Origin: a virus
Taxonomy: Duplodnaviria > Caudoviricetes
Length of the DNA: 64,000 nucleotides
IMG/VR virus record: IMGVR_UViG_2513237266_000002
Span: 33,677-97,676 of that record
Direction: 5' to 3' (one strand)
The translations under genes were made by a program, and so were the position numbers. Under the pieces are notes generated by a model. The model had not been told where the DNA came from, ran no database searches, and saw nothing but the letters and a program-made list of their open reading frames with translations. Below are positions 12,967 to 59,705 of the stretch, one piece after another. The stretch's first letter is position 1. Every line of letters starts with the position of its first letter.

Positions 12967-13305
12967 ATGAGAACAGTAGCGAGAAGATCGATACAGACGA
13001 TTGAGCGTCGGACTCAACTCGTCAGTTCTTTTGTGGACTCAAAAACAGAAAAAGAATTCTTCGTGAGAAGGTTGAGCGACCGTGTATCACCGGCGCGCCA
13101 GCTGTTTATCGTGACACTTAATAATGACGTTCGTGACGGCGATGTTATCCCTTTCGCTGAGATCGCCATGAACAACCAAAAGTTGCGATATGTGGTCAGG
13201 CCTGTGGATCAGTACCCTCAGTACGTGAATGGCAATCTGCTTGAGCGAATTGAAGCGGCGATTGCTCAGTACATGAAGAATCATAAGGAAATCAACTACC
13301 ATTAG
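12967..13305 (+). CDS. Hypothetical protein (first gene of cargo pair)
   Basis: Strong GAGGAGG RBS, 112 aa. Confidence 0.75.
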   Translation: MRTVARRSIQTIERRTQLVSSFVDSKTEKEFFVRRLSDRVSPARQLFIVTLNNDVRDGDVIPFAEIAMNNQKLRYVVRPVDQYPQYVNGNLLERIEAAIAQYMKNHKEINYH

Positions 13306-26756: not shown

Positions 26757-26832
26757 CTATTGCCAGCATGACATTACAAAAGCCGTTCACCGAGTGGCTT
26801 TGATAATGTTTTTTGAGTGAGGATTGTTCAGT

Positions 26833-27837
26833 ATGGCTTCGATAAAAGAATCCACTGATGCCAATGGACAATCAAAATATTACGTCCACTGGAAGGATGA
26901 AAAATCCGGTCATGGACGCCGCCGCATTTTTAAGAATATTGATGATGCCGCACATCTTTTCTGGCAAAAACAGAATATCGAGCTGGATTGTCGAACCGCC
27001 AGCTGGGCCGGAATAGACCATTCCTGGACTTTCCGAAAGTTAATTCTGTTTTATCTTGGCTATCAGGCTGGCAAGATGGAAAAAAATATCATACGGCTGT
27101 CGTCATATACGAAATGCCGTCACGATCTTCTCGCTGTAGACGGGCCGATACTGGGAAAAAATATTCTCCATATCAGCCATCGCGATATCGTTGATTCGGT
27201 TCGCACCGGCTGCCATCGCTGGATTCGTTCGGCTTTCTTCCTGCTGGTGGAAAAACGGCTCATCACTTTTAACCCTGTTGACCGTCCCGCGCGCCGGAAG
27301 CGTCGACCCATCACCATACCGCCATCATCATCGGTCAGAGAGCTACTGAATAACGCGCCAGTTCGCGAGCGTATCGCGTGCTGGCTCGGGATTTGTGGCC
27401 TGCGCATCGGTGAGGCTCTGGCGGTTACTTATAACGACGTGTCAGCCGACTGGATCGACATTCGGGGGCATGTTGTTGATGGCGTTATACATGAGGGGCT
27501 GAAAAGAGGCGTGGAGCGCCGGGTACGGATGCCGCGTGAGCTTTTCGCATTGCTGGATAAAAGTAAACTCGGTACCTCTGAGCCTCTTATCTGCAACCAG
27601 TTTACCGGAGCATGCCTCGCTACCAGCTACGGCACTCAGGGGGTTCTCGTCAGAACCCTGAACGACTATGGCATTAAGCGATTCCATCATCTTCGCCACT
27701 TTGCTGTATCTCGCCTGGCAAACAAAGGCGTCGATATTCTGAAGGTTTCTCGCCTCATTGGGCATTCAAACATCAAAACTACGATGGACGTTTACGGCCA
27801 CCTGTTCGGGGAAGTGGTGGAGATGGATTTAGACTGA
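26833..27837 (+). CDS. Tyrosine recombinase between lysis and terminase genes
   Basis: GLRIGE, HHLRH, IGH..TTMDVY; homologue at 56405-57430. Confidence 0.9.
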   Translation: MASIKESTDANGQSKYYVHWKDEKSGHGRRRIFKNIDDAAHLFWQKQNIELDCRTASWAGIDHSWTFRKLILFYLGYQAGKMEKNIIRLSSYTKCRHDLLAVDGPILGKNILHISHRDIVDSVRTGCHRWIRSAFFLLVEKRLITFNPVDRPARRKRRPITIPPSSSVRELLNNAPVRERIACWLGICGLRIGEALAVTYNDVSADWIDIRGHVVDGVIHEGLKRGVERRVRMPRELFALLDKSKLGTSEPLICNQFTGACLATSYGTQGVLVRTLNDYGIKRFHHLRHFAVSRLANKGVDILKVSRLIGHSNIKTTMDVYGHLFGEVVEMDLD

Positions 27838-32821: not shown

Positions 32822-34024
32822 ATGAAATATTTCTTTAAAACCCGCCTGGGGAACACCCGTTTCCAACTGGCAGATGGCTCGGTGCTTTTTAAGGACGTGC
32901 CGATAGGTCGCACCGGCGAGCAGGAATATGACGCCACCGAACGCCCGGAGCTGGTGCCGGATGCCCGAGGAAAGGTGATTGTCAGACGCACGCCGGAAGA
33001 GGTCTTTAGCGAGCGTGCGATGGCTTCCTTTGAAGGTATGGCGGTGACCATCGGCCACCCTCGCGACTTCAACGGGGAAATTATCTTTGTCACCCCGGAG
33101 AACTGGCGGCAGTTAGCCAACGGGCACATTCAGAACGTCAGGCGCGGGCAAGGTTCAGAATCCGACCTGTTGCTTGCTGATGTCATCGTTAAAACCCCCG
33201 AGGGGTTACAGGCCATCGACGATGGTGACGATGAAGTCAGTTGTGGGTATGACGCTGATTATGAACAAATCTCACCCGGACTCGCAAATCAGTCTGCGAT
33301 AACCGGTAACCATCTGGCTCTTGTCCCTAACGGGCGGGCCGGTTTCCGCTGCAAAATAGGGGATGCTATGCCTAGCACGACTAAAAACTGGTTTACCCGG
33401 CTTTTAAAGGCCCGTAAAACCAACGACGCCGCCGAAATGGCGAACCTTATCGATAACCCGCCGGACAATATGACTGGTGATACCGACGATGTGACGTCAT
33501 CCATGACGCCTGGCGGGGTGGTGATTAATCTCTCGCCTCAGGCCCCGATGCCTGCACCGACGCTGCCCGTAACTACTGATGCGGAAGAGGATATCCCGGA
33601 ATGGGGTAAGGCGCTGATTGCCGCAGTGGCAAAGCTCACCCCGACTGCGCCGACCACGGTCGATGAGGATGAGGACGAAAAAGGCGAGGTAGAGGGCGCT
33701 GTGACAGGTGATGCCGCTTACCGTGCCGACCTGATTCAGCCGGGTATTCAACTGCCGACGAAAGTTAAGCCCACGGCGTTTAAACGCCAGATCCTTGCCG
33801 CTGCCGATCAGACGCTGGTTCGTTCCATCGTTGGCGATGCGGATGTTACTGGCCTGAAAAAAGCCACCGTAGATATGGCGTTTAACGCCGTGTCTGAACT
33901 GGCTAAAAACCGCAATACCGCCGCGCAGACTGTCGACAGTTTCCGCACGATGACTACCAACACCACAAAATCTATCGCGGAAATCAATAAAGCCGCGAAA
34001 GAACTCTGGGCTAAACGAGGCTAA
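32822..34024 (+). CDS. DUF2213 prohead protease-scaffold
   Basis: VPIGRTG, TIGHP, EVSCGY, NHLALV..GRAG; acidic scaffold tail. Confidence 0.88.
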
Positions 34025-42733: not shown

Positions 42734-43801
42734 ATGTCACAGAACTGGATGAGACATTTCGAGCTGCAGCTCGTGGACGAGAACGGGCAGGGTATTGAGC
42801 TCAGCGATTTTAAAGTGACCTTTACGATCGACTGGTTCAACATCAGCAGCGCGTCACGCGTGGGAACGTTCAAAATCTATAATCTGTCAGCTGATACGGT
42901 GAACCGCATCACCGGGCAGGAGTTTTCGAAAGTGCGGCTGATTGCCGGTTACGACGGTATCGCGCCGGAGGTATCGGCCAGTGATGTCGGGACCGTGCGG
43001 GAAGTCGACGCGGCGGACGTGGGACAGAGTGATGGCCGTAACTATGGACTGATTTTCAGCGGTGAAATTCGCTACTCGGTCACCGGTAAAGACAGTCCTA
43101 TTGATTCCTACGTACTGATTCAGGCAGCTGATACGGATCTGGCTTTTGCCACCAGCATAACCTCGCAGACGCTGGCAGCCGGTTACACGGTCGCGGACGT
43201 GAACCGCGCTCTGATGAAAGACTTCGAGGCCAAAGGCGCGACCGAAGGACTGACGCCTGAAATGCCTGCTACCGTATTCCCCCGAGGCCGGGTGCTGTTC
43301 GGCATGACACGACATCTTATGGATAACGTGGCCGGACAATGTGGCGCAACATGGCAATTTGTGGACGGTCAGCGCCAGATGGTGGCGAATAACGAGTATG
43401 TTCACGACGCGATTGTGCTCAACAGCGCAACCGGGCTTATCGGCATGCCGCAGCAGACCATCGGCAACGGCGTAAACGTCCGCGCACTGATTAACCCGAA
43501 CATCCGGGTTAACGGGCTTATTCAACTGAATCAGGCTTCCGTGTACCGCACCGCGCTGTCGAACAACGATATCGCTATGGCTGGTGGGCAGATCACCGAC
43601 CAGAACACGGACGGAAATATCACGCTCAGCGGCACCACGGCGCAGCCTGCCAGCATTGCAACGGATGGCGTTTATATTGTGCGCGGGATTATGTACACTG
43701 GCGATACAAGGGGCCAGGCTTGGTACATGGATATGATGTGCGAAGCGCGTGGCGCGGCTGATCTCCGTTCGGCGTCGTCTTTACAGCGTGAGGTAGGATA
43801 G
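42734..43801 (+). CDS. Baseplate hub protein (helper copy)
   Basis: IYNLS, LIAGY, LIFSG, TGLIGMP, GDTRGQAWY; lies before spike. Confidence 0.8.
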   Translation: MSQNWMRHFELQLVDENGQGIELSDFKVTFTIDWFNISSASRVGTFKIYNLSADTVNRITGQEFSKVRLIAGYDGIAPEVSASDVGTVREVDAADVGQSDGRNYGLIFSGEIRYSVTGKDSPIDSYVLIQAADTDLAFATSITSQTLAAGYTVADVNRALMKDFEAKGATEGLTPEMPATVFPRGRVLFGMTRHLMDNVAGQCGATWQFVDGQRQMVANNEYVHDAIVLNSATGLIGMPQQTIGNGVNVRALINPNIRVNGLIQLNQASVYRTALSNNDIAMAGGQITDQNTDGNITLSGTTAQPASIATDGVYIVRGIMYTGDTRGQAWYMDMMCEARGAADLRSASSLQREVG

Positions 43802-44154
43802 TGAAAAAGTGGATTTTTATCGGACTCTGTTTCCTTCCGGGGTTAGCGTTTGCTGCGAATCCTGGCGGTATCACGCTACAGTGTGGTGGCTACAAATTAG
43901 AGTTGATTCCTGATTCACTGTTCAGGATTAATGGTGAGACAGTTACCTCCCAGAAAATTAAAACGCTCGGCAACGGAAATGGAATGAAGGCAGACATGGG
44001 CCTTATGCCAGCCAAAGACGGTAACAATTACGGTTTCGAGTTTATTCGCCGTCCGGGTACCGAAACACGTTTCCTGAACGTCCAACTGCTGCAGAACAGC
44101 ATGGACGCGCCAAAAGTTATCGGCTCTTTTCCGTGTAAGAAAGTGCCTGGATAA
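43801..44154 (+). CDS. Exported small protein with two Cys (helper copy)
   Basis: Sec signal MKKWIFIGLCFLPGLAFA; coupled to hub. Confidence 0.75.
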   Translation: MKKWIFIGLCFLPGLAFAANPGGITLQCGGYKLELIPDSLFRINGETVTSQKIKTLGNGNGMKADMGLMPAKDGNNYGFEFIRRPGTETRFLNVQLLQNSMDAPKVIGSFPCKKVPG

Positions 44155-46630: not shown

Positions 46631-46701
46631 ATGGCCCTCAATTTGGACACACTCGGCTTATCGGCAACGGTAACCGCTGAGGGGATCAGTGCGCCTGATT
46701 A
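46631..46701 (+). pseudogene. Baseplate J-like gene, 5' fragment (interrupted by satellite)
   Basis: MALNLDTLGLSATVTAEGISAPDY continues in frame at 58577 after excision. Confidence 0.9.
46685..46701 (+). repeat. Satellite attL core
   Basis: ATCAGTGCGCCTGATTA, identical at 58560-58576; ATCA-N7-TGAT dyad. Confidence 0.95.
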
Positions 46702-46871
46702 TTTTAATATCTATGAATCAATACGTTAACGTTCAATAAAGCGCGGTGTGGCTGGGTTTAGTCCCTGCTTATGGTGTTTGAATCCATTCGATTACTTTCG
46801 TCTATCTGGGGTTCAATTCGCCATAAGTGGGACTACGAAAGAAACCACAGCGGAAGCAGTGATAGGAGCTG

Positions 46872-48104
46872 ATGATGCTTGTTAAACCACTCACCAATGC
46901 AGAAGTTAAGAACGCGAAGCCACAGCTTAAAGATTACAGTCTTCATGATGGGTTTGGACTTCTTCTGTACGTTACTAAGTCAGGCGGTAAATCGTGGCGA
47001 TTCCGCTATGCGCACCCCATAACCGGGAAAAGGCAGACATTCACTATTGGCCGATATCCAGAATTTAGTCTCGCAGAAGCGAGGGAGGCGAGAGAAGAAG
47101 CCAGAAGGAAAGTTGCCCGAGGGATAGATCCAAACGAGGTTAAAAAAGAAGAACTCAGCGACAGACGGAAAAAACATGCGCAGCAGTTTTCTGTTATCGC
47201 TGATAACTGGCTGAAAATAAAAATCACGGAGGGCATCCGCAGCAATACAATTCGAGGCTACGAGGGGGCTTTAAAAACGCTGAATAGTGTTCTTGGTGAC
47301 GAGCCGGTACATAAAATGAATGCCGCCTCAACAATTCAGGCAATGAGAGAGTTTGCCGATCGTCCCGCCTCTGTGGAAAAGATGATAGTTGTGCTCAATT
47401 CGGTAATGGATTATGCGGTAAACACCGGAGTCATTGACCATAATTGCCTGCTAAAAATCGGCAAGGCTTTCCCAGCCAAAAGAAGCGTACCAATGCCCGT
47501 GATGGATAAAGGCAGATTGCCTGTGTTCCTTTCTGAATGGCTGGGGCTGAGTATGTGGGAGCCGATAAGGCTGTGTGTCTACTTCCAGCTTTTAACGATG
47601 GTAAGGCCATCTGAGGCTCGCCTGGCTGTTTGGGACGAAATTGATTTAGACAGTGCTGTCTGGAAAATTCCGGCTGAAAGAATGAAAGGGAAAAGGCCAC
47701 ACGCTGTACCGCTGTCCGCGCAAGCAATAGCAGTTTTACGCAATGCTGAAAAATGGCGTCGCGGGGCGTTTATTTTTCCTTCCGGCAAAAAGGGAGATAA
47801 GCCGATTGGAAAATGTACCGGGCAGATCGCTATTCATAAAACATCGCTAAGCGGAGAGGTTGTTACTCACGGGCTTAGGTCGCTTGCATCAACTGTGCTG
47901 AATGAAGAAGGGTTTAACCCTGATGTTATTGAGGCGGCACTTGCTCACAGAAGCAGGAACGCAATCCGCAATATCTACAATCGTACTGATTACTTTGAAC
48001 AGCGGCGTATGCTCATGCAGTGGTGGGGGGATTATGTCGATAGCGCAGAGCGCGGAGAACTGCTTGAGACAAAGGGCGATAAAGGATTAAGGCTGATTGG
48101 TTAG
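46872..48104 (+). CDS. int: Satellite integrase (P4-type)
   Basis: DGFGLLL..GGKSW..IGRYP..SLAEAR arm domain; VRPSE, HGLR, LAH...Y. Confidence 0.95.
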   Translation: MMLVKPLTNAEVKNAKPQLKDYSLHDGFGLLLYVTKSGGKSWRFRYAHPITGKRQTFTIGRYPEFSLAEAREAREEARRKVARGIDPNEVKKEELSDRRKKHAQQFSVIADNWLKIKITEGIRSNTIRGYEGALKTLNSVLGDEPVHKMNAASTIQAMREFADRPASVEKMIVVLNSVMDYAVNTGVIDHNCLLKIGKAFPAKRSVPMPVMDKGRLPVFLSEWLGLSMWEPIRLCVYFQLLTMVRPSEARLAVWDEIDLDSAVWKIPAERMKGKRPHAVPLSAQAIAVLRNAEKWRRGAFIFPSGKKGDKPIGKCTGQIAIHKTSLSGEVVTHGLRSLASTVLNEEGFNPDVIEAALAHRSRNAIRNIYNRTDYFEQRRMLMQWWGDYVDSAERGELLETKGDKGLRLIG

Positions 48105-48225
48105 TCCTCAAAACTCGACGTTTATTGCTGGCTATATGCCAGATTTTTTATTCCATTCAAACGCCGAAATGTATCTTTTTTATTCATATTTGTTATAATT
48201 GATTCATATATATACGGAGGTTTTT

Positions 48226-48438
48226 ATGTCTGAATCGAATAGTGAAATACTACTTAAAGGCGAGGTTAAAGCGCGACTTCGCTACCGTTCTGATTCTGCG
48301 TTCTATGATTTCCTCAAAGATGAGGGAAACGGTTTTCCGATGCCTTTTAAAGTGGGAGGCCGTAACTGCTGGTATCGTGACGAGGTTGAAGCGTGGATCG
48401 GGAAACAAAGTGAAAAGCGCGGGATCTGTACCGCATGA
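48226..48438 (+). CDS. alpA: AlpA-family regulator/excisionase
   Basis: FPMPFKVGGRNCWYRDEVEAW; GGAGG RBS. Confidence 0.85.
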   Translation: MSESNSEILLKGEVKARLRYRSDSAFYDFLKDEGNGFPMPFKVGGRNCWYRDEVEAWIGKQSEKRGICTA

Positions 48439-48577
48439 AAGCGGAGCAAATAGACGGGGCTTGTTACCGAAAGGGGCAAGCCTTTTTTATTGTCTGTTGC
48501 CAGCAACGGTAACTTACACCAGCCAGAGAAAGGCATTTCATCGGGTAGCGGTGGAATGTTTGCAGAAAAATGCACAA

Positions 48578-48682
48578 AGGTATTCATAGTGTTCATGATT
48601 TGAATATAGGTATTAAAAATCAGATAGATAGGCTATGAACACCTTTATCTAAGGTATTCATAGGGTATTCATAGTGTTCATA
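48578..48682. repeat. Iteron cluster 1 (GTRTTCAT / ATGAAYAC)
   Basis: About 6 copies, e.g. GGTATTCATAGGGTATTCATAGTGTTCAT. Confidence 0.75.
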
Positions 48683-48876
48683 AAGCGTGGATCTTTCCCC
48701 GGAAAAATTCGCCGGATGTTATAAAGCGCTTGCGTCATCATGGCGGGCATGGTTATGATTATTTCGCACCTTATAAAACGGGTGCCGGGTTTGACAGCCT
48801 GAACGTTCAAGCGGGTAGCCGCTAATTTCCGTATAGCGGTATTTTTACGCCCGTATTTCACCTATACCCCGATTTA

Positions 48877-48952
48877 TGGCGGGGCGTGGTGGGGAGGCTT
48901 ACGCCTGCTGGTTTCTTGAACGCCAGTCTGTCAACCCTGCTACGTCTCGCCA
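48877..48952 (+). ncRNA. C4/CI-like antisense immunity RNA
   Basis: TGGCGGGGCGTGG...CTACGTCTCGCCA closing stem; internal CTTGAAC and CTGTCAA complementary to GTTCAAG/TTGACAG upstream (48791-48811) and downstream (48960-48997). Confidence 0.8.
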
Positions 48953-49008
48953 CCCATGTTTGACAGCATCTGGCGAGACTCCTGAAAAATGTTCAAGGAG
49001 CCGCTAAA

Positions 49009-49254
49009 ATGGCTAAACCAACCTGCCCCAAATATACCTGGCTGTTTCTGGCCACACCGAAAAAACACGACTGCACACCAATCGTATTGCGCACAATGGC
49101 TGATACCGAAGAAGAAGCCCGCGATACCTTCCCATGCTGGAACCTGACTTTTGCCGCAAAAATCCGCACTGAAAGCAGCCTGCGTGATTCTGGCTGTGGA
49201 ACTTATGGCCTGAACCTCCTGACTCCGGAAATGCTGGAGGTGCACAATGTTTAA
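49009..49254 (+). CDS. Icd-like cell-division inhibitor
   Basis: [21 protein letters not shown]; follows C4-like RNA. Confidence 0.8.
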
Positions 49255-50125
49255 CCTCCAGACATTGACAGCCAAAGCCCGAGAATTGCGCGGCAACGTG
49301 GTTAAAGCGGTTAGCACTAAGGGCAGTCGCACAATGACGCCAGTTTATGACCGTGACGAACAGCGCAAGCTACGCGAACGCATACAGCAGACGCAACCGG
49401 ATTGGTTGTTGCTCTGGTGGGACATTGCGACCGTAACCGGCTGGCGTACCAGTGACGTTTGCAACCTGCGCTATTCCTGCATCAATTGGGAAACGGGGCA
49501 GGCGACAATTATCGTTGCCAAACAGACCAAAGCTGCTGAAGCGCGGGCAACCCGCAAAGGCATTGAAATCGTGCGCCAGCAGCGCAAGGACGCGGCGAGG
49601 CTTGCCGCTGACCATATCGCCTACATGAAGTGGGACAGCATCAACTGTGACGCGCTGGCAGCGGATATGACCGACGAAGAACAGGCGATAGTATTCGGGC
49701 TGGTGGCTAAAGCTGACGTTAAGCACGACACCAAACAGTTACCGCCTGGCATCATCAAGCGGCTGCGCGAACGTCAGGATCGGAACTTGGTAGAGGACGA
49801 CCTGATATTTTCCCGCTCTCAAATCGAAAGTAACCGTTGTCAACGTCTGGAAGGTAGCGTGACCCGCCAGACCATATGGCGCAAACTCCATGATGTGATG
49901 GCGTGGTTTACCCGCGTTATCAACGCCAAACTGCGTCTGAGCGCTTATTCAAGCCGTAAGATTGCAGCCTTTAACCTCATGTCAGCAGGCGGCGAACAAG
50001 GTTTGTTGGTGGCCTCTGAAATGCTGGGGCATAGCAACCCGGCAATAACACGCACATATCTGCAGTTAGGAAGTAAAGCGGCCGCGATCCAGTCTCGTCT
50101 GGCTATGGAGGTGTGCAATGCGTAA
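49247..50125 (+). CDS. Second satellite tyrosine-recombinase-family protein
   Basis: TGWRTSD, YSSRK, LGHSN..TRTYL. Confidence 0.8.
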
Positions 50126-50300
50126 AACCTTCCAGATTGATGGCTACGCAGTTAACAAACGCGGTCTGACCGTTGGTATTCACTACACCATGACCAGCAC
50201 CGGCCCTGAAACGGCGAAAGATACGGCGCAGCTACTTGCTCAGAAAGGCGGGTATAAACACGTCCGTATTAACTTTGTCCGGGAGGCGAAAAATGCGTGA
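50118..50300 (+). CDS. Small hypothetical protein
   Basis: GGAGG RBS, coupled. Confidence 0.65.
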   Translation: MRKTFQIDGYAVNKRGLTVGIHYTMTSTGPETAKDTAQLLAQKGGYKHVRINFVREAKNA

Positions 50301-50487
50301 GCCAATCAGCTTAGACCAGGCTGAATATAAATCAGCACTGGCCGCTTCACTCTTTGAAACCATTCTGGAAAAAGCCTGTGCTGAATGTTCGGAAACCCTG
50401 CTGAACCATATCTCACTGGCATGTGACCTTAATCAGGAAATTCACCGGGCATTAATCGCTGAGCTGCGCATGGGAGAGACAAAATGA
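50293..50487 (+). CDS. Small hypothetical protein
   Basis: MREPISLDQ start, GGAGG RBS. Confidence 0.65.
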   Translation: MREPISLDQAEYKSALAASLFETILEKACAECSETLLNHISLACDLNQEIHRALIAELRMGETK

Positions 50488-50690
50488 GACAGGTTCCTTT
50501 TGAAGTCCTGATGCACGCCGAAAATGCGCTGGCATACAGCAAACAGGCTCTGGCTATTCTGGAAGTCTGGATGGACTCACTAGGCGAAGGTGACGAACAC
50601 GAATCTAACTGCGTAGCCGCCATTCACAGCCTGGTACATGAATCAAAAGAATACCTGCAAAAAGCCACGGGGGTACAAAGTGCAAAATGA
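50484..50690 (+). CDS. Small hypothetical protein
   Basis: ATGA overlap with upstream gene. Confidence 0.65.
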   Translation: MRQVPFEVLMHAENALAYSKQALAILEVWMDSLGEGDEHESNCVAAIHSLVHESKEYLQKATGVQSAK

Positions 50691-53022
50691 CTTTGTAAGC
50701 GATGTGCGCAGCAGAGCAAATGGCTATTGGCCGTCGATACTTGAACGCCTGGCGATTCCGACTAACCGCAGTGAGGGGCCGTGTCCTGCGTGTGGCGGTA
50801 ATACCCGTTACCGTTTCGACAATAAAGATAACCGGGGAACGTATTTCTGTTCGCACTGTGGCGCGGGTACCGGGCTGGATCTGGTGATGAAGGTCAACCA
50901 GTGCGGCCCGAGAGAAGCGGCTGAGCTGGTGGCCGAAGCTATGACGCTGCCTATGCCGGAACCGAAGCAAGCCAGAGATAAGCCTCAAACGGATATCGCC
51001 GGGAAAGTTGCGGCGCTGGCCGCGAAAGCCTCTCCGGGGCAGTCTGCTTACCTTACATCAAAGGGGCTTCAATGCCCCTTCCCGATGCTGTCCGACGGAT
51101 CGCTGCTGCTGGTGCTGAAAAACGGTGCTGGTGCGGCGACTGGCGCACAGGTGATTAAACCTGATGGCAGTAAGCGGCTGGTGGCCGGAACGGTGAAGAA
51201 AGGCTCTTTTTGCGTAGTTAATTCCGGCGCAACGTCGGAAACGGTGATTATCGCCGAAGGGCTGGCAACGGCGCTTTCGGTTCAGCAGTTCCGCCCTGAT
51301 GCGACAATTATCGCAGCTATTGACGCCGGGAACCTGCTGCCCGTTGCTCAGGTGATGCGCAAAAAATACCCGAACGCGCGGATCATCATTGCTGCAGATA
51401 ATGACCAGAGCGCCGAAAGTGACAGAAGCGGAGAAGTGAAAGTTAACACAGGTAAGGAGTGTGCAGAGAAAGCCGCTAAAGCCGTTGCTGGCTGGGTTTC
51501 TTTGCCCCCTGTGGACTACAAGGCGGACTGGAACGACTACCACCGACAAAACGGACTGGAAGCCGCTATAGCAGCATTTAACGATTCGATGTATCAGCCG
51601 GAGGGGGAAACTGTGGGCGCAAAACTTAAAGTAGTCGATGGCGGTAAAAAGCGCGGGCGCGGAGAAATCAACCTGATCCAGATGGCAGATAATGAAAAAG
51701 CGCTGATGCTGGCAGACCGTTACGAGGGAATAGCCATTCACGCAGAGAGCGAGGCTGTATATCTGTACCGTGAAGGCGTATGGGTAAAAGCAGCGCCATT
51801 AGAATTAAGCCGCGAAATGGTGGCTATCTACAACGAAAATCAGACTAATTTCAGCAAACGCTCAGTAAATAACGTAATTGAAGCATTGAAGATTGTCATT
51901 CCTGTTATGGGCCAGCCTCGCCGGAGCCTGATCCCGTTCAAAAATGGTGTGTACGACATGGAAACCGGGACTTTCTCGCAGCATTCATTAGATAACTGGC
52001 TTACTAACGATAACGGTGTGATCTATACGCCGCCGGAGCCTGGCGAAAATCTTCACGACCATGCGCCAAACTTCCATAAATGGCTAAGTTACACAGCAGG
52101 AAGAGACGCACTTAAAATGAAGCGGATCGCCGCTGGGCTTTTTATGGTGCTGGCGAACCGCTACGACTGGCAGCTTTTTCTTGAGATAACCGGGGAGGGA
52201 GGTAGCGGCAAAAGCGTTTTCACTCACATTGCTACTATGCTGGCTGGCGAACACAACACGGCCAGCGGAAATATGGCCGCACTGGATAGCGCCAGAGGTC
52301 GGGCGCAGTTCGTAGGCAAAAGTATGATAACCCTACCAGACCAGCCAAAATATTCAGGCGAGGGAACGGGTATAAAAGCGATTACGGGCGGCGATGCCGT
52401 AGAGATTGACCCGAAGCATGAACACCAGTACACCGCCGTTCTGAGGGCTGTTGTAGTCGCTACAAACAACACGCCGATGATTTTCACCGAACGGGCCGGA
52501 GGCGTTGCCCGCCGTAGGGTTATTTTTCAGTTTAATAACCGGGTTCGAGAGGAAGACAAAGACCCCGATTTGTCGGAAAAGATATCCGCAGAAATCCCGG
52601 TTATTGTCCGCCGGCTCCTGGCTAACTTTTCTGATCCAGAGAAAGCAAGGGCGCTTTTGTTGGAACAGAGGAACAGTGAAGAAGCGCTGGAGGTTAAACA
52701 GAAAACAGACCCGCTTTATGCTTTCTGCGCATACCTTGAAAAGCTGTCAGAGTGTACGGGAATGCTGGTAGGGAACCGCAATCCGCCTCTCTACCCACGC
52801 GTGTATCTCTATCATGCGTATCTGGCCTTTCTGGAGGCTAACGGATTCGATAAGCCTTTAACACTCAATAAATTTGCTGAGGGCATGGAAAGCGCAATGC
52901 GCGAATTTAACCACGAATACCGGAAAGAGAGAAAGACGCGAGGAGTTGTAACCAACGTGGAACTCTCAGGAAGTGCTGAAGACTGGCTTCCACAGCCTTA
53001 TCCCAATCCCGCCAAGAAGTAA
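50680..53022 (+). CDS. P4 alpha-like primase-helicase
   Basis: CPACGG..CSHCG Zn finger, EGLATA/AADND TOPRIM, GEGGSGKS SF3 helicase, C-terminal winged helix. Confidence 0.93.
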   Translation: MQNDFVSDVRSRANGYWPSILERLAIPTNRSEGPCPACGGNTRYRFDNKDNRGTYFCSHCGAGTGLDLVMKVNQCGPREAAELVAEAMTLPMPEPKQARDKPQTDIAGKVAALAAKASPGQSAYLTSKGLQCPFPMLSDGSLLLVLKNGAGAATGAQVIKPDGSKRLVAGTVKKGSFCVVNSGATSETVIIAEGLATALSVQQFRPDATIIAAIDAGNLLPVAQVMRKKYPNARIIIAADNDQSAESDRSGEVKVNTGKECAEKAAKAVAGWVSLPPVDYKADWNDYHRQNGLEAAIAAFNDSMYQPEGETVGAKLKVVDGGKKRGRGEINLIQMADNEKALMLADRYEGIAIHAESEAVYLYREGVWVKAAPLELSREMVAIYNENQTNFSKRSVNNVIEALKIVIPVMGQPRRSLIPFKNGVYDMETGTFSQHSLDNWLTNDNGVIYTPPEPGENLHDHAPNFHKWLSYTAGRDALKMKRIAAGLFMVLANRYDWQLFLEITGEGGSGKSVFTHIATMLAGEHNTASGNMAALDSARGRAQFVGKSMITLPDQPKYSGEGTGIKAITGGDAVEIDPKHEHQYTAVLRAVVVATNNTPMIFTERAGGVARRRVIFQFNNRVREEDKDPDLSEKISAEIPVIVRRLLANFSDPEKARALLLEQRNSEEALEVKQKTDPLYAFCAYLEKLSECTGMLVGNRNPPLYPRVYLYHAYLAFLEANGFDKPLTLNKFAEGMESAMREFNHEYRKERKTRGVVTNVELSGSAEDWLPQPYPNPAKK

Positions 53023-53028
53023 GCAAAT

Positions 53029-53058
53029 AAAAAGCCCGCGAAAGGAGGCGCGGGCTTT
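53029..53058. terminator. Terminator after primase
   Basis: AAAGCCCGCG...CGCGGGCTTT. Confidence 0.7.
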
Positions 53059-53239
53059 GCTTAGTATCACATTGTGCAATCGGAGAGGGTATGCCTGCCC
53101 TCACAAACTTAGGATAGCAGATATTTAACACTGAATACCACTTTTATAAATTGATTGTTGTGTTTATTACCTGTTTTTATGGTAATGAAGTATAATATCT
53201 GTACCGACAATCCCGTCGAGGTAACAGGACAATCTGACC

Positions 53240-53794
53240 ATGCCAAATCTCAAGCAGTTCAATGCTCAGCCCGTCGCTAACGGTGTCGTAATCACGGCGA
53301 ACTACGACGACGGCAGCACTATTTCCTTTCCTACTGATAAACAATCATCCGATTTTATGACATCTATTGTGCAGGCGCTGGCCTCAGCTAATGACCGTAT
53401 CATTGCTGCTGAAAATCGCGCGGCGGCGGCAAATCGCACGGCTGATCGCATGTACAAGCGGACCGTAGATTCATCCGAAGATGGACTGCCAACAAAAATA
53501 GACCCTCAGTTTATGCGACTGGTTCGTGCTGTATGCCCGCGTTATGACGAGGCCAGCCAAGGAGATGATCCACGGTTGGTCGCCCTTGATGTGCTGCGTT
53601 ATGCGCCAGTAACTGCGTTCAGTGCGGTATGCAATGAATCACTGGCTGATTTGCAACCTAATCGGGCGATAGAAATTCTTGAGCAGGTGGGTGATTACAT
53701 GAAAGCCAACGGCATTGATCCGAAGCCATATACGTCAGCCGATACGATTAGGGCTATCGGCGATTCTGCTAAAAAATTCTGGAGTAAAAAATAA
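53240..53794 (+). CDS. Satellite protein ending in scaffold-like C-terminal motif
   Basis: C-terminus IRAIGDSAKKFWSKK resembles helper [16 protein letters not shown]. Confidence 0.7.
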   Translation: MPNLKQFNAQPVANGVVITANYDDGSTISFPTDKQSSDFMTSIVQALASANDRIIAAENRAAAANRTADRMYKRTVDSSEDGLPTKIDPQFMRLVRAVCPRYDEASQGDDPRLVALDVLRYAPVTAFSAVCNESLADLQPNRAIEILEQVGDYMKANGIDPKPYTSADTIRAIGDSAKKFWSKK

Positions 53795-53795
53795 T

Positions 53796-53981
53796 ATGTC
53801 ACGATTCATTACCCGATCAGAACGAGAAGCAATGCGAGCGCGTAGAACGACTGATAGTGAACGAGCAAACATTCAGAATATCAATCAGGCCAATAAAGAT
53901 TTTTGGGAACAGAAAAAAACGGAAGAAAAAGATAGGTTGGCCGTGATTAACAGACACCTTTTTCCCTACGGTAAATTTTAA
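53796..53981 (+). CDS. 61-aa satellite protein with scaffold-like motif
   Basis: TTDS...IQNINQANKDFWEQKK; GGAG RBS; starts 1 bp after upstream stop. Confidence 0.65.
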   Translation: MSRFITRSEREAMRARRTTDSERANIQNINQANKDFWEQKKTEEKDRLAVINRHLFPYGKF

Positions 53982-54025
53982 CCCCACAGCCCGGAGATTA
54001 GTCCGGGTTTGCTTTTTTAAGGAGC

Positions 54026-55099
54026 ATGAATATGTCACAAAACTGGATGCGTCACTTTGAATTACAACTGGTGGACGACAACGGGCAAGGTATTGAACTC
54101 AGCGATTTCAAAGTGACCTTCACGATCGACTGGTTCAACATCAGCAGCGCGTCGCGGGTGGGTACGTTCAAAATCTACAACCTGTCGGCTGATACGGTGA
54201 ACCGAATCACCGGGCAGGAGTTTTCGAAAGTGCGTCTGATTGCGGGCTATGACGGCATCGCGCCGGAAGTGTCGGCCAGCAGCGTCGGAACGGCGCGAGA
54301 AGTCGATGCGGCGGACGTGGGCCAGAGTGATGGCCGGAACTACGGACTGATTTTCAGCGGAGAAATTCGCTACTCGGTCACAGGTAAAGACAGCCCCATT
54401 GATTCCTACGTCCTGATTCAGGCAGCCGATACGGATCTGGCTTTTGCTACCAGCATAACCTCGCAGACGCTGGCAGCCGGCTACACGACAGAAGACATGT
54501 TCAATCTTTTAATGAAAGACTTTGAGGCCAAAGGCGCAACTGTGGGTCGCACTCCAGTATTCCCCCCTACAGTGTTCCCTCGGGGCCGCGCACTGTTTGG
54601 CATGACCAGACACCTGATGGACAACGTGGCCGCACAATGCGGAGCGACCTGGCAGTTCGTGGACGGACAGCTAAATATGCTGCCAGAAGGTGAGTATATG
54701 CACGACGCGATTGTGCTCAACAGCGCCACCGGACTGATCGGGATGCCGCAGCAGACCATCGGCAACGGCGTGAACGTTCGCGCACTGATTAACCCGAATA
54801 TTCGAATTAACGGGCTCATTCAGCTGGATCAACGTTCCGTGTATCGCACCGCGTTGTCAAACAACGATATCGCGATGGCTGGCGGGCAGATCACCGACCA
54901 GAATACGGACGGCAATATCACGCTCAGCGGCACCACAGCGCAGCCTGCCAGCATCGCAACAGATGGCGTTTATGTTGTGAAAGGCATTATGTACACTGGC
55001 GACACAAGGGGCCAGGCGTGGTACATGGATATGATGTGCGAAGCGCGTGGCGCGGCGGATCTTAATTCAAAATCTTATTTCGATAAAACGAGTGGCTAA
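54026..55099 (+). CDS. Baseplate hub protein (satellite allele)
   Basis: Near-identical to 42734-43801 except a few patches and the C-terminus. Confidence 0.9.
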   Translation: MNMSQNWMRHFELQLVDDNGQGIELSDFKVTFTIDWFNISSASRVGTFKIYNLSADTVNRITGQEFSKVRLIAGYDGIAPEVSASSVGTAREVDAADVGQSDGRNYGLIFSGEIRYSVTGKDSPIDSYVLIQAADTDLAFATSITSQTLAAGYTTEDMFNLLMKDFEAKGATVGRTPVFPPTVFPRGRALFGMTRHLMDNVAAQCGATWQFVDGQLNMLPEGEYMHDAIVLNSATGLIGMPQQTIGNGVNVRALINPNIRINGLIQLDQRSVYRTALSNNDIAMAGGQITDQNTDGNITLSGTTAQPASIATDGVYVVKGIMYTGDTRGQAWYMDMMCEARGAADLNSKSYFDKTSG

Positions 55100-55446
55100 T
55101 GATAACTGCATTAAAAACATTCTGTGCATTTGCAATATTCTTATCTTTATCAGCTAATGCTGCTTTCTTATGTGGTAGCTGGAAACTAACGGGTAATGAT
55201 GATGGCTGGGTTAGGGTAAATGGTGAGAAGGTAACTTCCCAAAAAGTTAAAGAATTAGGCGCGAAAGGTGATGGTGCTAACACTGTTTGGAATATGGGCC
55301 TGATGCCAGCGCGTGACGGGAACAATTACGGCTTTGAGTTCGTGAAGCGCAAAGGAAAAGCTTTCCTGAACGTCCAACTGCTGCAGAACAGCATGGACGC
55401 GCCGAGAATCATCGGATCTTTCCCGTGTAAAAAAGTTCCTGATTAA
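55099..55446 (+). CDS. Exported small protein (satellite allele)
   Basis: Signal peptide; C-terminal half nearly identical to 43801-44154. Confidence 0.85.
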   Translation: MITALKTFCAFAIFLSLSANAAFLCGSWKLTGNDDGWVRVNGEKVTSQKVKELGAKGDGANTVWNMGLMPARDGNNYGFEFVKRKGKAFLNVQLLQNSMDAPRIIGSFPCKKVPD

Positions 55447-55512
55447 AGCAGAGACTTAGCGGCATATTAGTAACACCTTATGTTAATAAAATGTTTCTAT
55501 TGAGGCGACAGG

Positions 55513-55619
55513 CATGAACACCTATGTACACTTATGAAGGGTTGTGAATACTGGTGTTCATGCTTTATCTTTATGAATAATATGGTTAATATCGCGAATA
55601 TGAATACCATGAACACCTT
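55513..55619. repeat. Iteron cluster 2 (ATGAAYAC)
   Basis: ATGAACACC, TGAATACTGGTGTTCAT, ATGAATACCATGAACACC; same motif as cluster 1. Confidence 0.7.
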
Positions 55620-55811
55620 GAGAGCAAGTTCTCTAAAACGCGCCCTAAATGCAACACTTACAGTATAAAAACCATTTTTATAGTTCAAAAAAGAATATGC
55701 ATTAACAATTTATTATCATTTGGTTTGGCGGCATTTATAAGCTTTTACGCACAGAAAATAACCATCTTGTTAGCCGTATTAAATGTCAGACGTGAGGAAC
55801 GGTAACTTAAA

Positions 55812-56396
55812 ATGAAAAATAGCGTTACTAATGCAAACTCCTGCTCTGATACGCAGGAAATTGAAAGTTTACCTGCATACAGACAGGCGCTGGCCGATGA
55901 CGCTGTAAGTAATAAGGTGTCTGCTGTAGAACGTATCCGGGCAAGGTTGGCGCTTCTGGAGAGCTATATTCCTGATTCGCCTGTGCCACAAGACGAGGTA
56001 GCCGAATTTCGTGGCCGCATCACCGGATTACTCGGTGAACTGGAGGTGGGCGGTAAACGCGGCACTGTACTGATTCATGCACATCGAAAATTACGCGATT
56101 TAGAGGATCGGATTTACATTCCTGTACGCCGGATGGCCGCTGAACAGTTTGACCAACTGCGCCGGGAAAAACCGGACATGACGGGCGATGTATTACTGAA
56201 AACTCTGCTGGGCGATGAAATTGGCGAATATCAGACGAGAAACCCGGAGGCGTCAAAAATAGCCACTCTGGCCGCGCTTATGAGGTCATCACCCCGTGTG
56301 GATATTCTCATCAACATGATCCGCCAGCGAAATGATGAGCATACGGTAGCAGTGTTTAGCTGGTGTCCTCTGGAATTACCTTTGCAGGGTGTGTAG
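55812..56396 (+). CDS. Hypothetical satellite protein
   Basis: 194-aa ORF upstream of third recombinase. Confidence 0.7.
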   Translation: MKNSVTNANSCSDTQEIESLPAYRQALADDAVSNKVSAVERIRARLALLESYIPDSPVPQDEVAEFRGRITGLLGELEVGGKRGTVLIHAHRKLRDLEDRIYIPVRRMAAEQFDQLRREKPDMTGDVLLKTLLGDEIGEYQTRNPEASKIATLAALMRSSPRVDILINMIRQRNDEHTVAVFSWCPLELPLQGV

Positions 56397-56404
56397 GGGG
56401 AAAC

Positions 56405-57430
56405 ATGGCATCTATCCGTGAGATTGGCTCGGGAAAGCGCCTGCGTTATGTCGTTAACTGGCTGGATAAAGAAAACCGCACCGGGCGACGCAATACCTTT
56501 CACAGCATCGACGATGCGGCGGCGCTGCTGTATCAACTGGAAGTGGCAGCCCTTGACTGGCGAACGGCAGACAATGCGGAGGCGGTAAAACGCTGGACGC
56601 TGCAGAAACTGTCTTGGTTCTGGCTGGGATATCAGCGCGACAGGCTGAACCGGAACAGGATCAGGGCAACCAGTTACGACCGCTACCGCTATTGCCTGCT
56701 AAACCTTCCGTCTGACCTGCTGAATAAAAACCTGAATAAAATCACTTCACGCCAACTTAGCGAGCGGCTTAACCGACAGTCGCTTGTGTACATCGGCGCG
56801 GCTTTTGCTTATCTCATGCGTTCCGGGATGATTGCTCATAATCCGGTTCGCCAGAGCCGATCACCGGCAGACAGGCCGTGGCAAATCCCGGATGAAGATA
56901 CCGTGTTAGCCATGCTGGATCGCGCAGAGCGGCGCGAAAGGATTGCTATCTGGCTGGGCGCGGCTTGCGGCCTGCGTATCAGCGAAGTGCTGGCGTTAAC
57001 CTATCGGGATGTGAGCGCTGACGAAATACAGGTTCGCTGCCATCTGACTTCACGCGGGATTATCCGGGGCAGAAAGCGCGGCAGGGGCCGTTCCGTCGAT
57101 ATGCCGGTTGGCCTGTATGAGTGCCTCGATAAAACGCTGCTGGGAACGGATACACCGCTGATTGCCGGGAGCAACGGACAGAGGCTGAGCCTGAACTACA
57201 GCACATCCGGCGTGATGAAACGCCTGCTCTCTGAATTCGGGATAGAGCGCTTTCATGACCTGAGGCATTTTGCGGTGTCCAGCCTGGTAAAAAACGGCGT
57301 TGATATTCTGGACGTGTCGGACATGGTGGGCCACTCCCGGCCGTCGGTGACGTTGAATATTTACGGGCATCTTTTCCGCGAAAAACCGTCACTCAAGAAC
57401 GCTCTGAGAGGAGGGGTAAGGAGAATATAG
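56405..57430 (+). CDS. Third satellite tyrosine recombinase, homologue of helper 26833-27837
   Basis: Shared MASI, GRR..F..IDDAA, WT..KL..F.LGYQ, RERIA.WLG, RFH.LRHFAVS.L...GVDIL, YGHLF. Confidence 0.9.
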   Translation: MASIREIGSGKRLRYVVNWLDKENRTGRRNTFHSIDDAAALLYQLEVAALDWRTADNAEAVKRWTLQKLSWFWLGYQRDRLNRNRIRATSYDRYRYCLLNLPSDLLNKNLNKITSRQLSERLNRQSLVYIGAAFAYLMRSGMIAHNPVRQSRSPADRPWQIPDEDTVLAMLDRAERRERIAIWLGAACGLRISEVLALTYRDVSADEIQVRCHLTSRGIIRGRKRGRGRSVDMPVGLYECLDKTLLGTDTPLIAGSNGQRLSLNYSTSGVMKRLLSEFGIERFHDLRHFAVSSLVKNGVDILDVSDMVGHSRPSVTLNIYGHLFREKPSLKNALRGGVRRI

Positions 57431-57496
57431 TAAACTCCTTACTTTCCCGGTGTGATGCGGGTTCATCGACTGAAAGCGACGATCTAGCCATTTTTG

Positions 57497-57637
57497 GATA
57501 ATACCGCACTTTTTCACGCTTTCCGGACGGGTGAGCAACAAAATGCGGAGAAATGAGGAATGACGCGGCCTGTAGCCCGACAAAGTGCGGCATATCACAT
57601 GAGCGCAGGCCGCATTCTACCGTTATCGATACGCCGC
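57497..57637. repeat. Satellite counterpart of helper repeat site
   Basis: AAGTGCGGCATATCA (57583) is the exact reverse complement of helper 27954-27968; GACGCGGCCTG 57562; GATACGCCGC 57628. Confidence 0.75.
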
Positions 57638-57700
57638 GGACTTTTTGAGGGTTCGTGAGCACGTCCCGTTTTTTGCCGATGGTGGACAGAGTGAGGAAAA

Positions 57701-58225
57701 ATGAACGTTTTAGCAGCCGCTGAAAATGGCTTCCGGTTTAAGGGGATCTGGTGGACGGAGGAGACCTTTACTGACGTATTGCGCACGGTACTGAACCTGC
57801 ACCGTGCTATGAGTAATCACCGGGTGGCTTTTCACTTTGGAGTTTCTGAAAAAGCCGTCAGGAAATTGAGAGCACGCAGCGATACCGCCAATGGGGTGAT
57901 ACTGCGCCTGATGGAAGAAGCGAAACTCAGCAGTAGCAGGCCAGCACAGTATCGCGAACGCAACTGGTACAACAATTACCCGGAAGACATCGAGGCCAGA
58001 AAAATACTGATAGCCGCAGAGGAGGAAAGGGAAAGGCAGCGGGTAGTTCGACATGAGCAGCGAAAGCAGAGAACGCGCCGGGTTACTGATGGTGCTCTAC
58101 GTCTTGAGCGGATTAGAGCGCAGCGGCGTGAGGCGGTACAATGCTGTAAACGGTCAGGATTAACTCAGGTGCTGGCAGCAGAAAGCCTGTCATGTTCGCT
58201 AAGTACTGTCCGGCGGTACTGGTGA
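57701..58225 (+). CDS. Double-HTH protein; N-terminal HTH resembles helper TerS
   Basis: SNHRVAFHFGVSEKAVRKLR vs SNRMVAQRLGVDETTIRRWR; C-terminal TQVLAAESLSCSLSTVRRYW. Confidence 0.7.
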   Translation: MNVLAAAENGFRFKGIWWTEETFTDVLRTVLNLHRAMSNHRVAFHFGVSEKAVRKLRARSDTANGVILRLMEEAKLSSSRPAQYRERNWYNNYPEDIEARKILIAAEEERERQRVVRHEQRKQRTRRVTDGALRLERIRAQRREAVQCCKRSGLTQVLAAESLSCSLSTVRRYW

Positions 58226-58277
58226 ATGTTGAGCGACCGTAGCCGTTAAGTTTCACTTCTGGTAATGAGTAACTTAC

Positions 58278-58466
58278 ATGCTGAAATCTGATGTGATTGA
58301 GTCTGCAATAGCAGAGATGTTAACAAAGCAAGGGCGAGATTTAGACGCTACTGACATGCTGGAGATACGCCGTAGGGTAGCTGGATCGCTCGCCGCAAAG
58401 GAAAGGCACCGCCAGCGCATGACAGCCCCGGAATATCGCTGGAACAAGCCTGCACCCCGCAGATAG
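58278..58466 (+). CDS. Small basic hypothetical protein
   Basis: Last ORF before attR. Confidence 0.6.
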   Translation: MLKSDVIESAIAEMLTKQGRDLDATDMLEIRRRVAGSLAAKERHRQRMTAPEYRWNKPAPRR

Positions 58467-58559
58467 TAATTTGCACACCTAAGAGCAGTTAACGGACTAG
58501 ATTCCCACTACAAATAAAATAAAAGCCATATATATCAATAGCATTATCATTGTTATTGA

Positions 58560-58576
58560 ATCAGTGCGCCTGATTA
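58560..58576 (+). repeat. Satellite attR core
   Basis: ATCAGTGCGCCTGATTA. Confidence 0.95.
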
Positions 58577-59705
58577 CCAGACGATACTCGATACCCTGAC
58601 GAGCTATTTCCAGCAGATTTATGGTAGTGACGCTTATCTGGAGCCAGACAGCAAAGACGGTCAGATGGTGGCACTGGTGGCGCTGGCTATCCATGATGCC
58701 AATAACACGGCTATTTCCGTCTATAACTGCTTTTCTCCTGCCACAGGGTATGGCGCCGCGTTGACCAGCAACGTGAAAATTAACGGCATCGCGCGCAAAG
58801 GGGCGACGAACTCTACTGTGGATCTGGTGCTGGCTGGCACTGCAGGGACAACTATCACGAACGGTACCGTAAAAGACACCAATAACGTGATCTGGCGTCT
58901 TCCTGCCTCGGTGGTGATTGGTGTCGACGGTACGGTGACGGTAACGGCCACCTGTTCCAACAGCGGGGCAGTTGCCGCGCTGGCCGGGACTATCACCACT
59001 ATCAACACCCCGACCCGAGGCTGGACATCTGTGATCAATCCAGCGGCGGCCACCGTCGGAGCACCGGCAGAAACCGACGCAGAGCTGCGCATCCGGCAGG
59101 GGCAGAGTGTCGCGCTACCCTCTGTAACACCGTTTGAAGGTGTCGACGGTGCGATCGCTAACGTTGCTGGTGTGACACGTCACAAGCTCTACGAGAATGA
59201 CACTGGCGCTACCGACAGTAATGGGCTTCCGCCACATTCTATCTCTGCCATCGTTGACGGTGGCGACGTAACGGACATTGCTCAGACAATCCGGGGCAAC
59301 AAGGGGCAGGGAACGGCGACCTATGGGACGACCTCTGTCACGGTACCTGACACTTACGGCAATCCGCACGTGATCAGTTTTTCGCGCTCGACTGATGTCC
59401 CGATTTTCGGGCATATCACTCTGAAAGCCTTTACGGGCTACACGTCGCAAATTGGCGTACAGATTCAGCAGGCCGTCGCGGATTACATCAACGGGCTGAC
59501 GATCGGTGATTCAGTTCTGCTGAGTCGCATATACTCCCCGGCTAACCTGGGCGTGGTCAGTGGTGGCAGTGCTCGTTATTACGACATTCAGGAACTGCTA
59601 ATTGGCAAATCAGCCGGAACTGTAGCGGCGGCAAATATCAACATTGCATACAACGAGTCAGCATCCTGTAAGCCTGAAAATATTGTTCTAACGGTGACGT
59701 CATGA
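58560..59705 (+). pseudogene. Baseplate J-like gene, 3' part (399 aa when rejoined)
   Basis: ISAPDYQTILD..DSKDGQMV..; ETDAELRIR, PPHSI..VDGG baseplate-J motifs. Confidence 0.9.

Follow-up and report, generated by a model that had tools for sequence, protein, structure and literature searches.

The DNA considered here is a stretch of 64,000 nucleotides, hereafter the window, that makes up the right-hand portion of a provirus record of 97.7 kb in IMG/VR (IMGVR_UViG_2513237266_000002, positions 33,677 to 97,676) and is occupied by a SEN34/YP3/Mulock-like myovirus prophage. Within this prophage, the helper, an 11,875-bp island lies between two exact 17-bp direct repeats and splits the helper baseplate-J gene. 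The island carries two adjacent open reading frames (ORFs), ORF184 and ORF61, whose predicted products resemble the C-terminal tail of the DUF2213 head protease-scaffold of the helper. An initial annotation of the sequence had pointed to this likeness in three proteins, the helper DUF2213 protein, ORF184 and ORF61, and all three were located where it had placed them. The genes and features concerned are as follows.

53240 to 53794, + strand: ORF184, a 184-amino-acid satellite protein of an unnamed family
53462 to 53473, + strand: internal TVDS of ORF184, residues 75-78, in a predicted disordered linker; candidate maturation-protease site
53744 to 53791, + strand: scaffold-tail motif of ORF184, TIRAIGDSAKKFWSKK, residues 169-184, at the extreme C-terminus
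53796 to 53981, + strand: ORF61, 61 amino acids, with its ATG at 53796 and its stop at 53981
53847 to 53918, + strand: T-x-D and amphipathic-helix motif of ORF61, residues 18-41
53125 to 53152, + strand: promoter-like site in the AT-rich spacer between the primase gene and ORF184, a consensus match only
53988 to 54009, + strand: terminator-like hairpin with a T-run directly 3' of ORF61
32822 to 34024, + strand: helper DUF2213 head protease-scaffold, 400 amino acids
33929 to 34021, + strand: the copied tail of the helper scaffold, comprising TVDS, a spacer and the terminal helix
34536 to 35477, + strand: helper major capsid protein, DUF2184/PF09950, the putative binding target

The C-terminal end of ORF184 is DTIRAIGDSAKKFWSKK, and ORF61 contains TTDSERANIQNINQANKDFWEQKK. 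ORF61 is practically a free-standing scaffold tail (TTDS, then NIQNINQANKDFWEQKK) followed by a charged C-terminal extension. It starts 1 nt past the ORF184 stop, with GGAG 11 nt upstream of its ATG, and hairpins at 53031-53058 (after the primase gene) and 53988-54009 enclose the two genes as a two-gene cassette.

When the helper scaffold was searched against 1.8 billion cluster representatives of public proteins, 4988 matches were obtained at E<=0.001. In the best 150 of these 4988, which are 35-50% identical overall, the C-terminal tail is strongly conserved, with the consensus T-x-D(F/S), a short spacer and S-I-A-D-I-N-K-R-N-x-E-F-W-A-K-R. Across an alignment of 40 diverse DUF2213 proteins, N389 of the tail is invariant and W396 is at least 90% conserved. 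The tail is made up of a T-x-D element, present in 91 of 140 DUF2213 tails, a 13-residue amphipathic helix (I-x-x-I-N-x-x-N-x-x-F-W) and a short basic hook. An AlphaFold2 (AF2) model of the helper protein (predicted local distance difference test score, pLDDT, 81) has a beta-rich domain at residues 1-180, a helical domain at 296-370, a disordered stretch at 371-384 that holds TVDS, and a terminal helix at 385-399. PHROGs label the beta-rich N-terminal domain head maturation protease, and the C-terminal part is scaffold-like. Two cluster representatives (P0051 and P0164) are free-standing C-terminal DUF2213 halves of 217-218 amino acids that lack the protease domain and keep the tail; these may be split phage genes or additional satellite scaffold copies.

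Translation of the 64 kb in six frames gives exactly three matches to the pattern I..I.{4,5}K.[FL..]W, one each in the scaffold, ORF184 and ORF61. Since this pattern was set after the fact, it was followed by tests on data without the satellite proteins. A forward hidden Markov model (HMM), built solely from 140 DUF2213 tails, was run on 3192 stop-to-stop ORFs from the window and the first loci. After the true scaffolds it recovered ORF61 (E 3e-4), the Klebsiella homologues of ORF61 (5e-4 to 2.5e-3), the E. coli homologue of ORF184 (2.8e-3), the E. coli homologue of ORF61 (0.27) and the ORF184 of the window (1.9), and the sole spurious match in this range was a 45-codon antisense frame found in two Klebsiella loci. 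A reverse HMM, built from 25-residue motif windows of ORF61-type proteins alone and searched against 10,030 ORFs, returned more ORF61 homologues and then DUF2213 scaffolds (E 2e-3 to 6e-3), and no unrelated ORF scored below E 1. In profile-profile alignments with hhalign the ORF61 family matched the last 22 columns of DUF2213 (probability 76%, E 2.3e-5) and the C-terminus of the ORF184 family (96%). By BLASTP, ORF61 shares 17 of 30 residues (57%, E 3e-7) with the last 30 residues of a distant DUF2213 protein, the identities including TTDS and INQANKDFW.

Three results count against extending this likeness to the ORF184 of the window. It scores only E 1.9 in the forward HMM, it is not significantly similar to its own helper scaffold by pairwise BLASTP, and the ORF184 family, which aligns to DUF2213 C-terminus to C-terminus at E 1.9e-3, does so with a probability of only 14%. 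The statement of the initial annotation that both satellite proteins carry the terminal motif of the scaffold is thus strongly upheld for ORF61 by HMMs, hhalign and BLASTP, while for ORF184 it stands at the level of the family and fails in the pairwise comparison. Taken together, the comparisons confirm that, as judged by sequence, the scaffold-tail motif in the satellite proteins is real and more than chance. The match is strong for ORF61 and weaker for ORF184, where family evidence and the link to ORF61 argue for it. The satellite tail copies are most likely homologous to the last 25-30 residues of the scaffold. A greedy hhalign alignment places residues 4-184 of ORF184 co-linear with residues 214-400 of the scaffold and pairs R-T-x-D-S with T-x-D-S-A; because the extended alignment did not raise the score and confidence there is near zero, homology along the full length of ORF184 is only a lead.

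The AF2 model of ORF184, made from the family alignment (pLDDT 72), predicts a three-stranded N-terminal sheet, a coiled-coil-like helix of about 40 residues (34-75), a disordered linker (71-88) holding TVDS, a four-helix region (89-157), a further linker and a terminal amphipathic helix (166-183). The models of ORF184 and of the helper scaffold end alike, in a helical domain, a flexible linker and a terminal helix. No family was found for ORF184 or ORF61 in Pfam, PHROGs or NCBIfam, and the ORF184 family profile had no match at E<=1 among all PDB chains. Searches with the ORF184 model (Foldseek PDB/BFVD, VIA-align wide, ESM Atlas) gave only generic long-helix or coiled-coil matches and a weak COMM-domain-like match, and no fold was assigned. 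The DUF2213 domain (PF09979), which the helper protein matches at 1.5e-35, was not found in ORF184 or ORF61, and the two are not DUF2213 members in the Pfam sense.

The motif T[VT]DS is present in four real proteins of the window, the capsid protein (residues 9-12, position 34560), the scaffold linker (33929), the ORF184 linker (53462) and ORF61 (53847); elsewhere in the window it falls in only three non-coding frames. In the alignment of capsid proteins T9, D11 and G14 are invariant around TVDS. From this pattern, T[VT]DS could be a head-protease cleavage site that releases the tails.

The ORF184 family comprises at least 42 clusters from Enterobacterales, with members in Klebsiella, Raoultella, Citrobacter, Salmonella, E. 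coli, Enterobacter, Serratia, Rahnella and Lelliottia. Its tail is conserved, with T-x-D followed by I-x-x-I-[NG]-x-x-[AN]-x-x-[FA]-W-G-K-K and with W181 kept in at least 90%; the motif is therefore conserved among homologues, in ORF61-type genes as well as in the 42-cluster ORF184 family, and the lack of conservation that, according to the initial annotation, would have spoken against its idea was not seen. The homologues always lie 3' of a primase gene. Except in one locus without a detected ORF61-type gene and in islands with a fused gene, the ORF184 homologues of the loci examined are immediately followed by an ORF61-type gene of 55-66 codons, which gene callers frequently miss. A word-index search with ORF61 gave only five close relatives; the broader family came from the loci themselves. 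In some Citrobacter and Lelliottia islands, some of which lie in baseplate J and are otherwise like that of the window, ORF184 and ORF61 are fused into a protein of 224-225 amino acids with a single, more degenerate tail, NIQLQRQLDQHWEQQK (L035:10001-10678, L036, L037 and L020; proteins P0018 and P0020). Another protein, P0015 (240 amino acids), resembles a frameshift fusion of the Klebsiella pair. The conserved adjacency and the fusion in some islands indicate that the pair is one functional unit. ORF184 has no homologue in 50,697 GenBank phage records, and so is a satellite gene and not a phage gene.

The island itself is a satellite of the phage-inducible chromosomal island (PICI) type, embedded in its helper. 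Its satellite nature, claimed in the initial annotation, is borne out by the 17-bp attachment repeat, the P4-type integrase and the primase. The repeat splits baseplate J, whereas the SEN34 counterpart is intact, and the gene content includes an integrase, a primase and, in a late zone, genes captured from the helper. In SEN34 the baseplate W gene is followed directly by an intact J gene of 399 amino acids; in the window the J gene starts at 46631, is broken after codon 24 and continues at 58577. Splitting of gene J by the island delays tail assembly of the helper. Besides the gene pair, the island carries the following.

46685 to 46701: attL, the first copy of the exact 17-bp direct repeat, within codons 19-24 of the helper baseplate-J gene
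46872 to 48104, + strand: island integrase, P4-type (Arm-DNA-bind_3 and Phage_integrase)
50638 to 53022, + strand: island primase-helicase, P4-alpha-like (Zn-ribbon, Toprim, D5_N, DUF5906, Pox_D5)
54026 to 55446, + strand: captured helper late genes, a second baseplate hub and a phrog_3443 protein
58560 to 58576: attR, the second copy of the 17-bp repeat

The island hub has 90% amino acid identity to the helper hub at 42734-43801, and the island phrog_3443 protein 59% identity to that of the helper. An integrase-like gene of 292 amino acids, a further recombinase and a helix-turn-helix (HTH) protein complete the island gene set. No AlpA gene was identified in the window itself; AlpA was seen in related islands. 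The second tyrosine recombinase of the island (56363-57430) is 44% identical to a helper recombinase (26824-27837) that lies immediately upstream of the helper TerS-like gene, and the 174-amino-acid HTH protein of the island has no BLASTP similarity to the helper TerS-like protein. Other islands bear spike, Dit-like and even tape-measure genes (L004, L019, L033, L038), and satellites of this group may affect helper tails as well as heads. The helper prophage also has tail and baseplate genes, and its remaining landmarks in the window are these.

From 28868: helper terminase
From 30505: helper portal
From 31802: helper MuF-like protein
From 34028: helper cement protein
42734 to 43801: helper baseplate hub; the hub and phrog_3443 stretch spans 42734 to 44154

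About 30 ORF184 loci were scanned with the proteins of the window, and about 20 of these lie inside SEN34-like prophages. Related islands with the same integrase type occupy at least three late-gene sites in such prophages. The DUF2184 capsid gene is the site in nine loci (L005, L006, L013-L017, L019 and L032), at about codon 132, where the junction ...QLKW was checked by translation. The cement gene is used in about eight, among them L009, L021, L023, L025 and L026, at about codon 6 and directly after DUF2213, with a 7-bp core, CTGTACC; in five of the eight or so, DUF2213 is visible on the fetched stretch. Baseplate J is the site, at codons 19-24, in the window (46631-58576), L011, L012, L035 and L036. 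A 13-bp repeat considered as the attachment site of the islands next to DUF2213 in the cement gene proved to be a chance match, the real junction being the CTGTACC core. At the right junction of a cement-site island (L021:630-700, 13060-13110) the cement gene lacks its first codons and an in-frame Met (MPVGIAG...) follows the junction, so that the composite might still yield a cement protein of slightly reduced length. Several other loci, on chromosomes or short contigs, have hub, spike, Dit or tape-measure genes of the SEN34-like type (L004, L018, L027-L029, L033 and L038). The tie of the gene pair to the DUF2213/DUF2184 helper type is strong, and the connection to such phages drawn in the initial annotation agrees with islands that are embedded in SEN34-like prophages or carry late genes of that type.

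The tails of satellite and helper also resemble each other within groups. In the window the helper has KAAKELW and the satellite DSAKKFW, and in the Klebsiella pair the helper has QAAQEFW and the satellite DAAKKAW, so that the window and Klebsiella group combines A-A-(K/Q)-E-x-W in the helper with (S/A)-A-K-K-x-W in the ORF184 tail. In a second group the helper has TTGDA...KQNADFW and the satellite TTGDA-IRSINTDNASFW, that is, TTGDA-I-R-S-I-N-T-D-N-A-S-F-W. This is suggestive of a satellite tail that resembles the tail of its own helper at the same positions.

We tentatively propose, at somewhat less than even chances, that ORF184 and ORF61 form a competing-scaffold module by which a helper-embedded satellite redirects capsid size. 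In this proposal the tail of the helper scaffold would dock on the inner face of the DUF2184 major capsid protein, and the tail-bearing satellite proteins would take the same sites in assembling helper procapsids. The N-terminal sheet and long helix of ORF184 may drive self-association, and ORF184 would be a competing internal scaffold that biases assembly toward a smaller shell suited to the 12-kb island. ORF61, which consists of hardly more than the tail, would compete with the helper scaffold and drive it from its sites. We put this explanation first because the copied tails, the larger body of ORF184 and an island of 11-15 kb against a helper of about 40 kb fit the logic of CpmB from Staphylococcus aureus pathogenicity island 1 (SaPI1). 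The helper genome is about 40 kb and the islands about 11-15 kb, the 12-kb island being about 0.3 of its helper; similar ratios hold for P4 and P2 and for SaPI1 and 80alpha. By analogy with the scaffolds of P22, phi29, 80alpha and herpesviruses, the C-terminal tail is the likeliest capsid-docking element of DUF2213 proteins.

A DUF2213 homologue, gp24 of phage Pa193, has been located experimentally as an internal capsid scaffold-like protein (PMC11456595) and is deposited as a scaffolding protein (PDB 9B40). Its resolved helix-turn-helix is bound under the five-fold vertices, and the same map contains helices of about 16 residues without assignment under the hexons (PMC11456595). Because of its similar length (about 16 residues), the DUF2213 C-terminal helix is a candidate for this hexon density. 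ORF61 aligns to the last 22-30 residues of this family (PF09979), to which Pa193 gp24 belongs, while ORF184 and ORF61 lack the DUF2213 domain itself. A single-sequence search of the PDB with the last 50 residues of the helper scaffold returned only designed helical proteins and no gp24 C-terminus.

The closest parallel is CpmB (PDB 6B23), which shares with the 80alpha scaffold a C-terminal helix-and-hook that binds the same capsid-protein site; the resulting change in capsomer angle leads to small heads, suited to a genome about a third as large as that of the helper (PMC5644958). As with CpmB, a satellite protein has a copy of the helper scaffold C-terminus, here a helix of about 13 residues and a basic hook of 3-5 residues, the island is about 0.3 of the helper, and the N-terminal part of ORF184 could self-associate. 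Unlike CpmB, the pair has a motif of the form I..IN..N..FW instead of RIIK and has no sequence or fold relation to it; there are two tail-bearing proteins instead of one, ORF184 is 2.5 times the size of CpmB, and the helper is a Gram-negative myovirus whose scaffold is fused to a protease domain (DUF2213). Rcm of SaPIpT1028, whose helper is phi7206, has been shown experimentally to resemble the helper scaffold, bind the major capsid protein and redirect capsid size, and it evolved independently, so that scaffold mimicry is recurrent and tuned to the helper (PMC12409344). Rcm is unrelated in sequence to the proteins described here, and its helper is a siphovirus of a Gram-positive host. If the proposal is correct, ORF184 and ORF61 would resemble P4 Sid and Psu and the PICI protein Ccm in being satellite factors that make small heads from the capsid protein of the helper. 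Sid is an external scaffold and Ccm a capsid-protein homologue; the copied tail implies an internal site, and no similarity to Sid, Psu or Ccm was found in Pfam, PHROG and PDB searches. The initial annotation had noted no resemblance to Sid, CpmAB or Ccm, and indeed no relation of the pair to CpmB, Sid, Ccm or any Pfam, PHROG, NCBIfam or PDB entry was detected.

Several observations weigh against the competing-scaffold proposal. Docking by the DUF2213 tail is an analogy, and the capsid-bound piece of gp24 that has been resolved is the internal helix-turn-helix at residues 286-326 and not the C-terminus (PMC11456595). For self-association of ORF184 the only hints are a long helix in the model and a weak similarity to a COMM domain. 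A small genome is no proof of small capsids, as a model PICI of E. coli is, according to a report that cites earlier work, packaged as phage-length concatemers (PMC10111431). The covariation of helper and satellite tails comes from only two or three independent groups, and the sampling in IMG/VR is biased toward copies embedded in prophages. For one K. pneumoniae allele the usual location is a chromosomal site, and in two Citrobacter genomes with chromosomal islands no DUF2213 gene or phage was found, which is compatible with satellites that are waiting for an incoming helper.

A different use of the tail, which we regard as unlikely, would be interference alone, the tail acting as a decoy that blocks scaffold docking or, through T-x-D, as a pseudo-substrate or inhibitor of the DUF2213 protease; helper yield would fall, capsid size would stay the same, and the satellite would travel as concatemers in normal heads. 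ORF61 is indeed hardly more than a tail, T[VT]DS is confined, among the real proteins of the window, to the capsid protein, the scaffold, ORF184 and ORF61, and the island, through the split in gene J, already delays the assembly of helper tails. Full-size heads can package Gram-negative PICIs (PMC10111431). A pure block would, however, harm a satellite that itself requires working helper heads, about 165 conserved residues of ORF184 beyond the tail would be superfluous for a decoy, and T-x-D is found in only 91 of the 140 tails, the protease site being a candidate one. Doubtful as well, though somewhat less so than interference alone, is a more elaborate form of the competing-scaffold proposal, a two-component, protease-coupled remodelling of the capsid in which ORF184 would be a self-associating alternative scaffold derived from the C-terminal half of the helper protein, ORF61 would evict the helper scaffold, and the helper protease would effect release of both at the T-x-D sites. 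Combined with insertion into late genes (J, capsid, cement) and the capture of baseplate genes, this would give the satellite command, from inside the helper, of the size of its heads as well as the assembly of its tails.

The least probable of the explanations considered is that the tail is a loading peptide, in the manner of the encapsulin cargo-loading peptide or the T4 capsid-targeting sequence, with ORF184, ORF61 or both packed and delivered with satellite DNA, for example for establishment or counter-defence. We know of no precedent for this in satellites. The position of the ORF184 tail at the extreme C-terminus behind a flexible predicted linker would suit such a role, a candidate protease-type site upstream of the tail could free the cargo, and fragments of the DUF2213-family scaffold remain in mature Pa193 heads (PMC11456595). 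Family and fold searches nevertheless gave no recognisable enzymatic or DNA-binding domain in ORF184, and two tail-bearing products, one of them tail-only, better suit competition. Distinctly unlikely, finally, is a function unrelated to the capsid, with ORF184 a regulator or a replication accessory protein beside the primase and origin, and the motif a convergent or chance amphipathic helix. Many homologues are named 'XRE family transcriptional regulator' at NCBI, ORF184 lies directly after the primase gene and an AT-rich spacer, and the ORF184 of the window is only weakly similar to its own helper scaffold. The name is not matched by any HTH_3/XRE, Pfam (E<=0.01) or NCBIfam (E<=0.1) hit or by a fold match of the AF2 model; moreover, the ORF61 motif match is reciprocal and significant, ORF61 is clearly related to the ORF184 tail, with the genes fused in some islands, and the gene pair tracks one helper phage type.

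Helper-embedded PICIs were published in 2023 by Tommasini, Mageeney and Williams, for lambdoid helpers and with 14 sites named after lambda genes (PMC10111431). The islands described here are like them in having an integrase, a primase, a late zone with captured helper late genes and several late-gene sites; they differ in that the helpers are SEN34-like myoviruses and the sites lie in baseplate J, the DUF2184 capsid gene and the cement gene. The main text of that paper does not contain the word 'scaffold' and does not mention the gene pair. The system was called undescribed in the initial annotation, which holds for the protein family; the strategy, represented by CpmB and Rcm, and the helper-embedded PICI configuration have been published (PMC5644958, PMC12409344, PMC10111431). 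What appears to be new is the protein family, the motif, the two-gene arrangement and the helper type, for which no published description was found.

To our knowledge, only a few factors redirect capsid size (Sid, CpmAB, Ccm, TcaP and Rcm), and we know of no scaffold-mimicking factor described for Gram-negative PICIs. Across Klebsiella, Citrobacter, Salmonella, E. coli, Serratia and Enterobacter the gene pair occurs widely, in islands that mobilise defence and other cargo. Its motif is short, can be mutated and has one invariant Trp, and the enterobacterial setting is tractable. These islands widen the picture of helper-embedded PICIs from lambdoid to myovirus helpers. If the competing-scaffold proposal is true, a capsid-docking element would be identified for the large family of DUF2213 protease-scaffolds, a head-assembly layer would be added to the helper-embedded satellite lifestyle, and scaffold-tail mimicry would be a general, repeatedly evolved path to capsid piracy.

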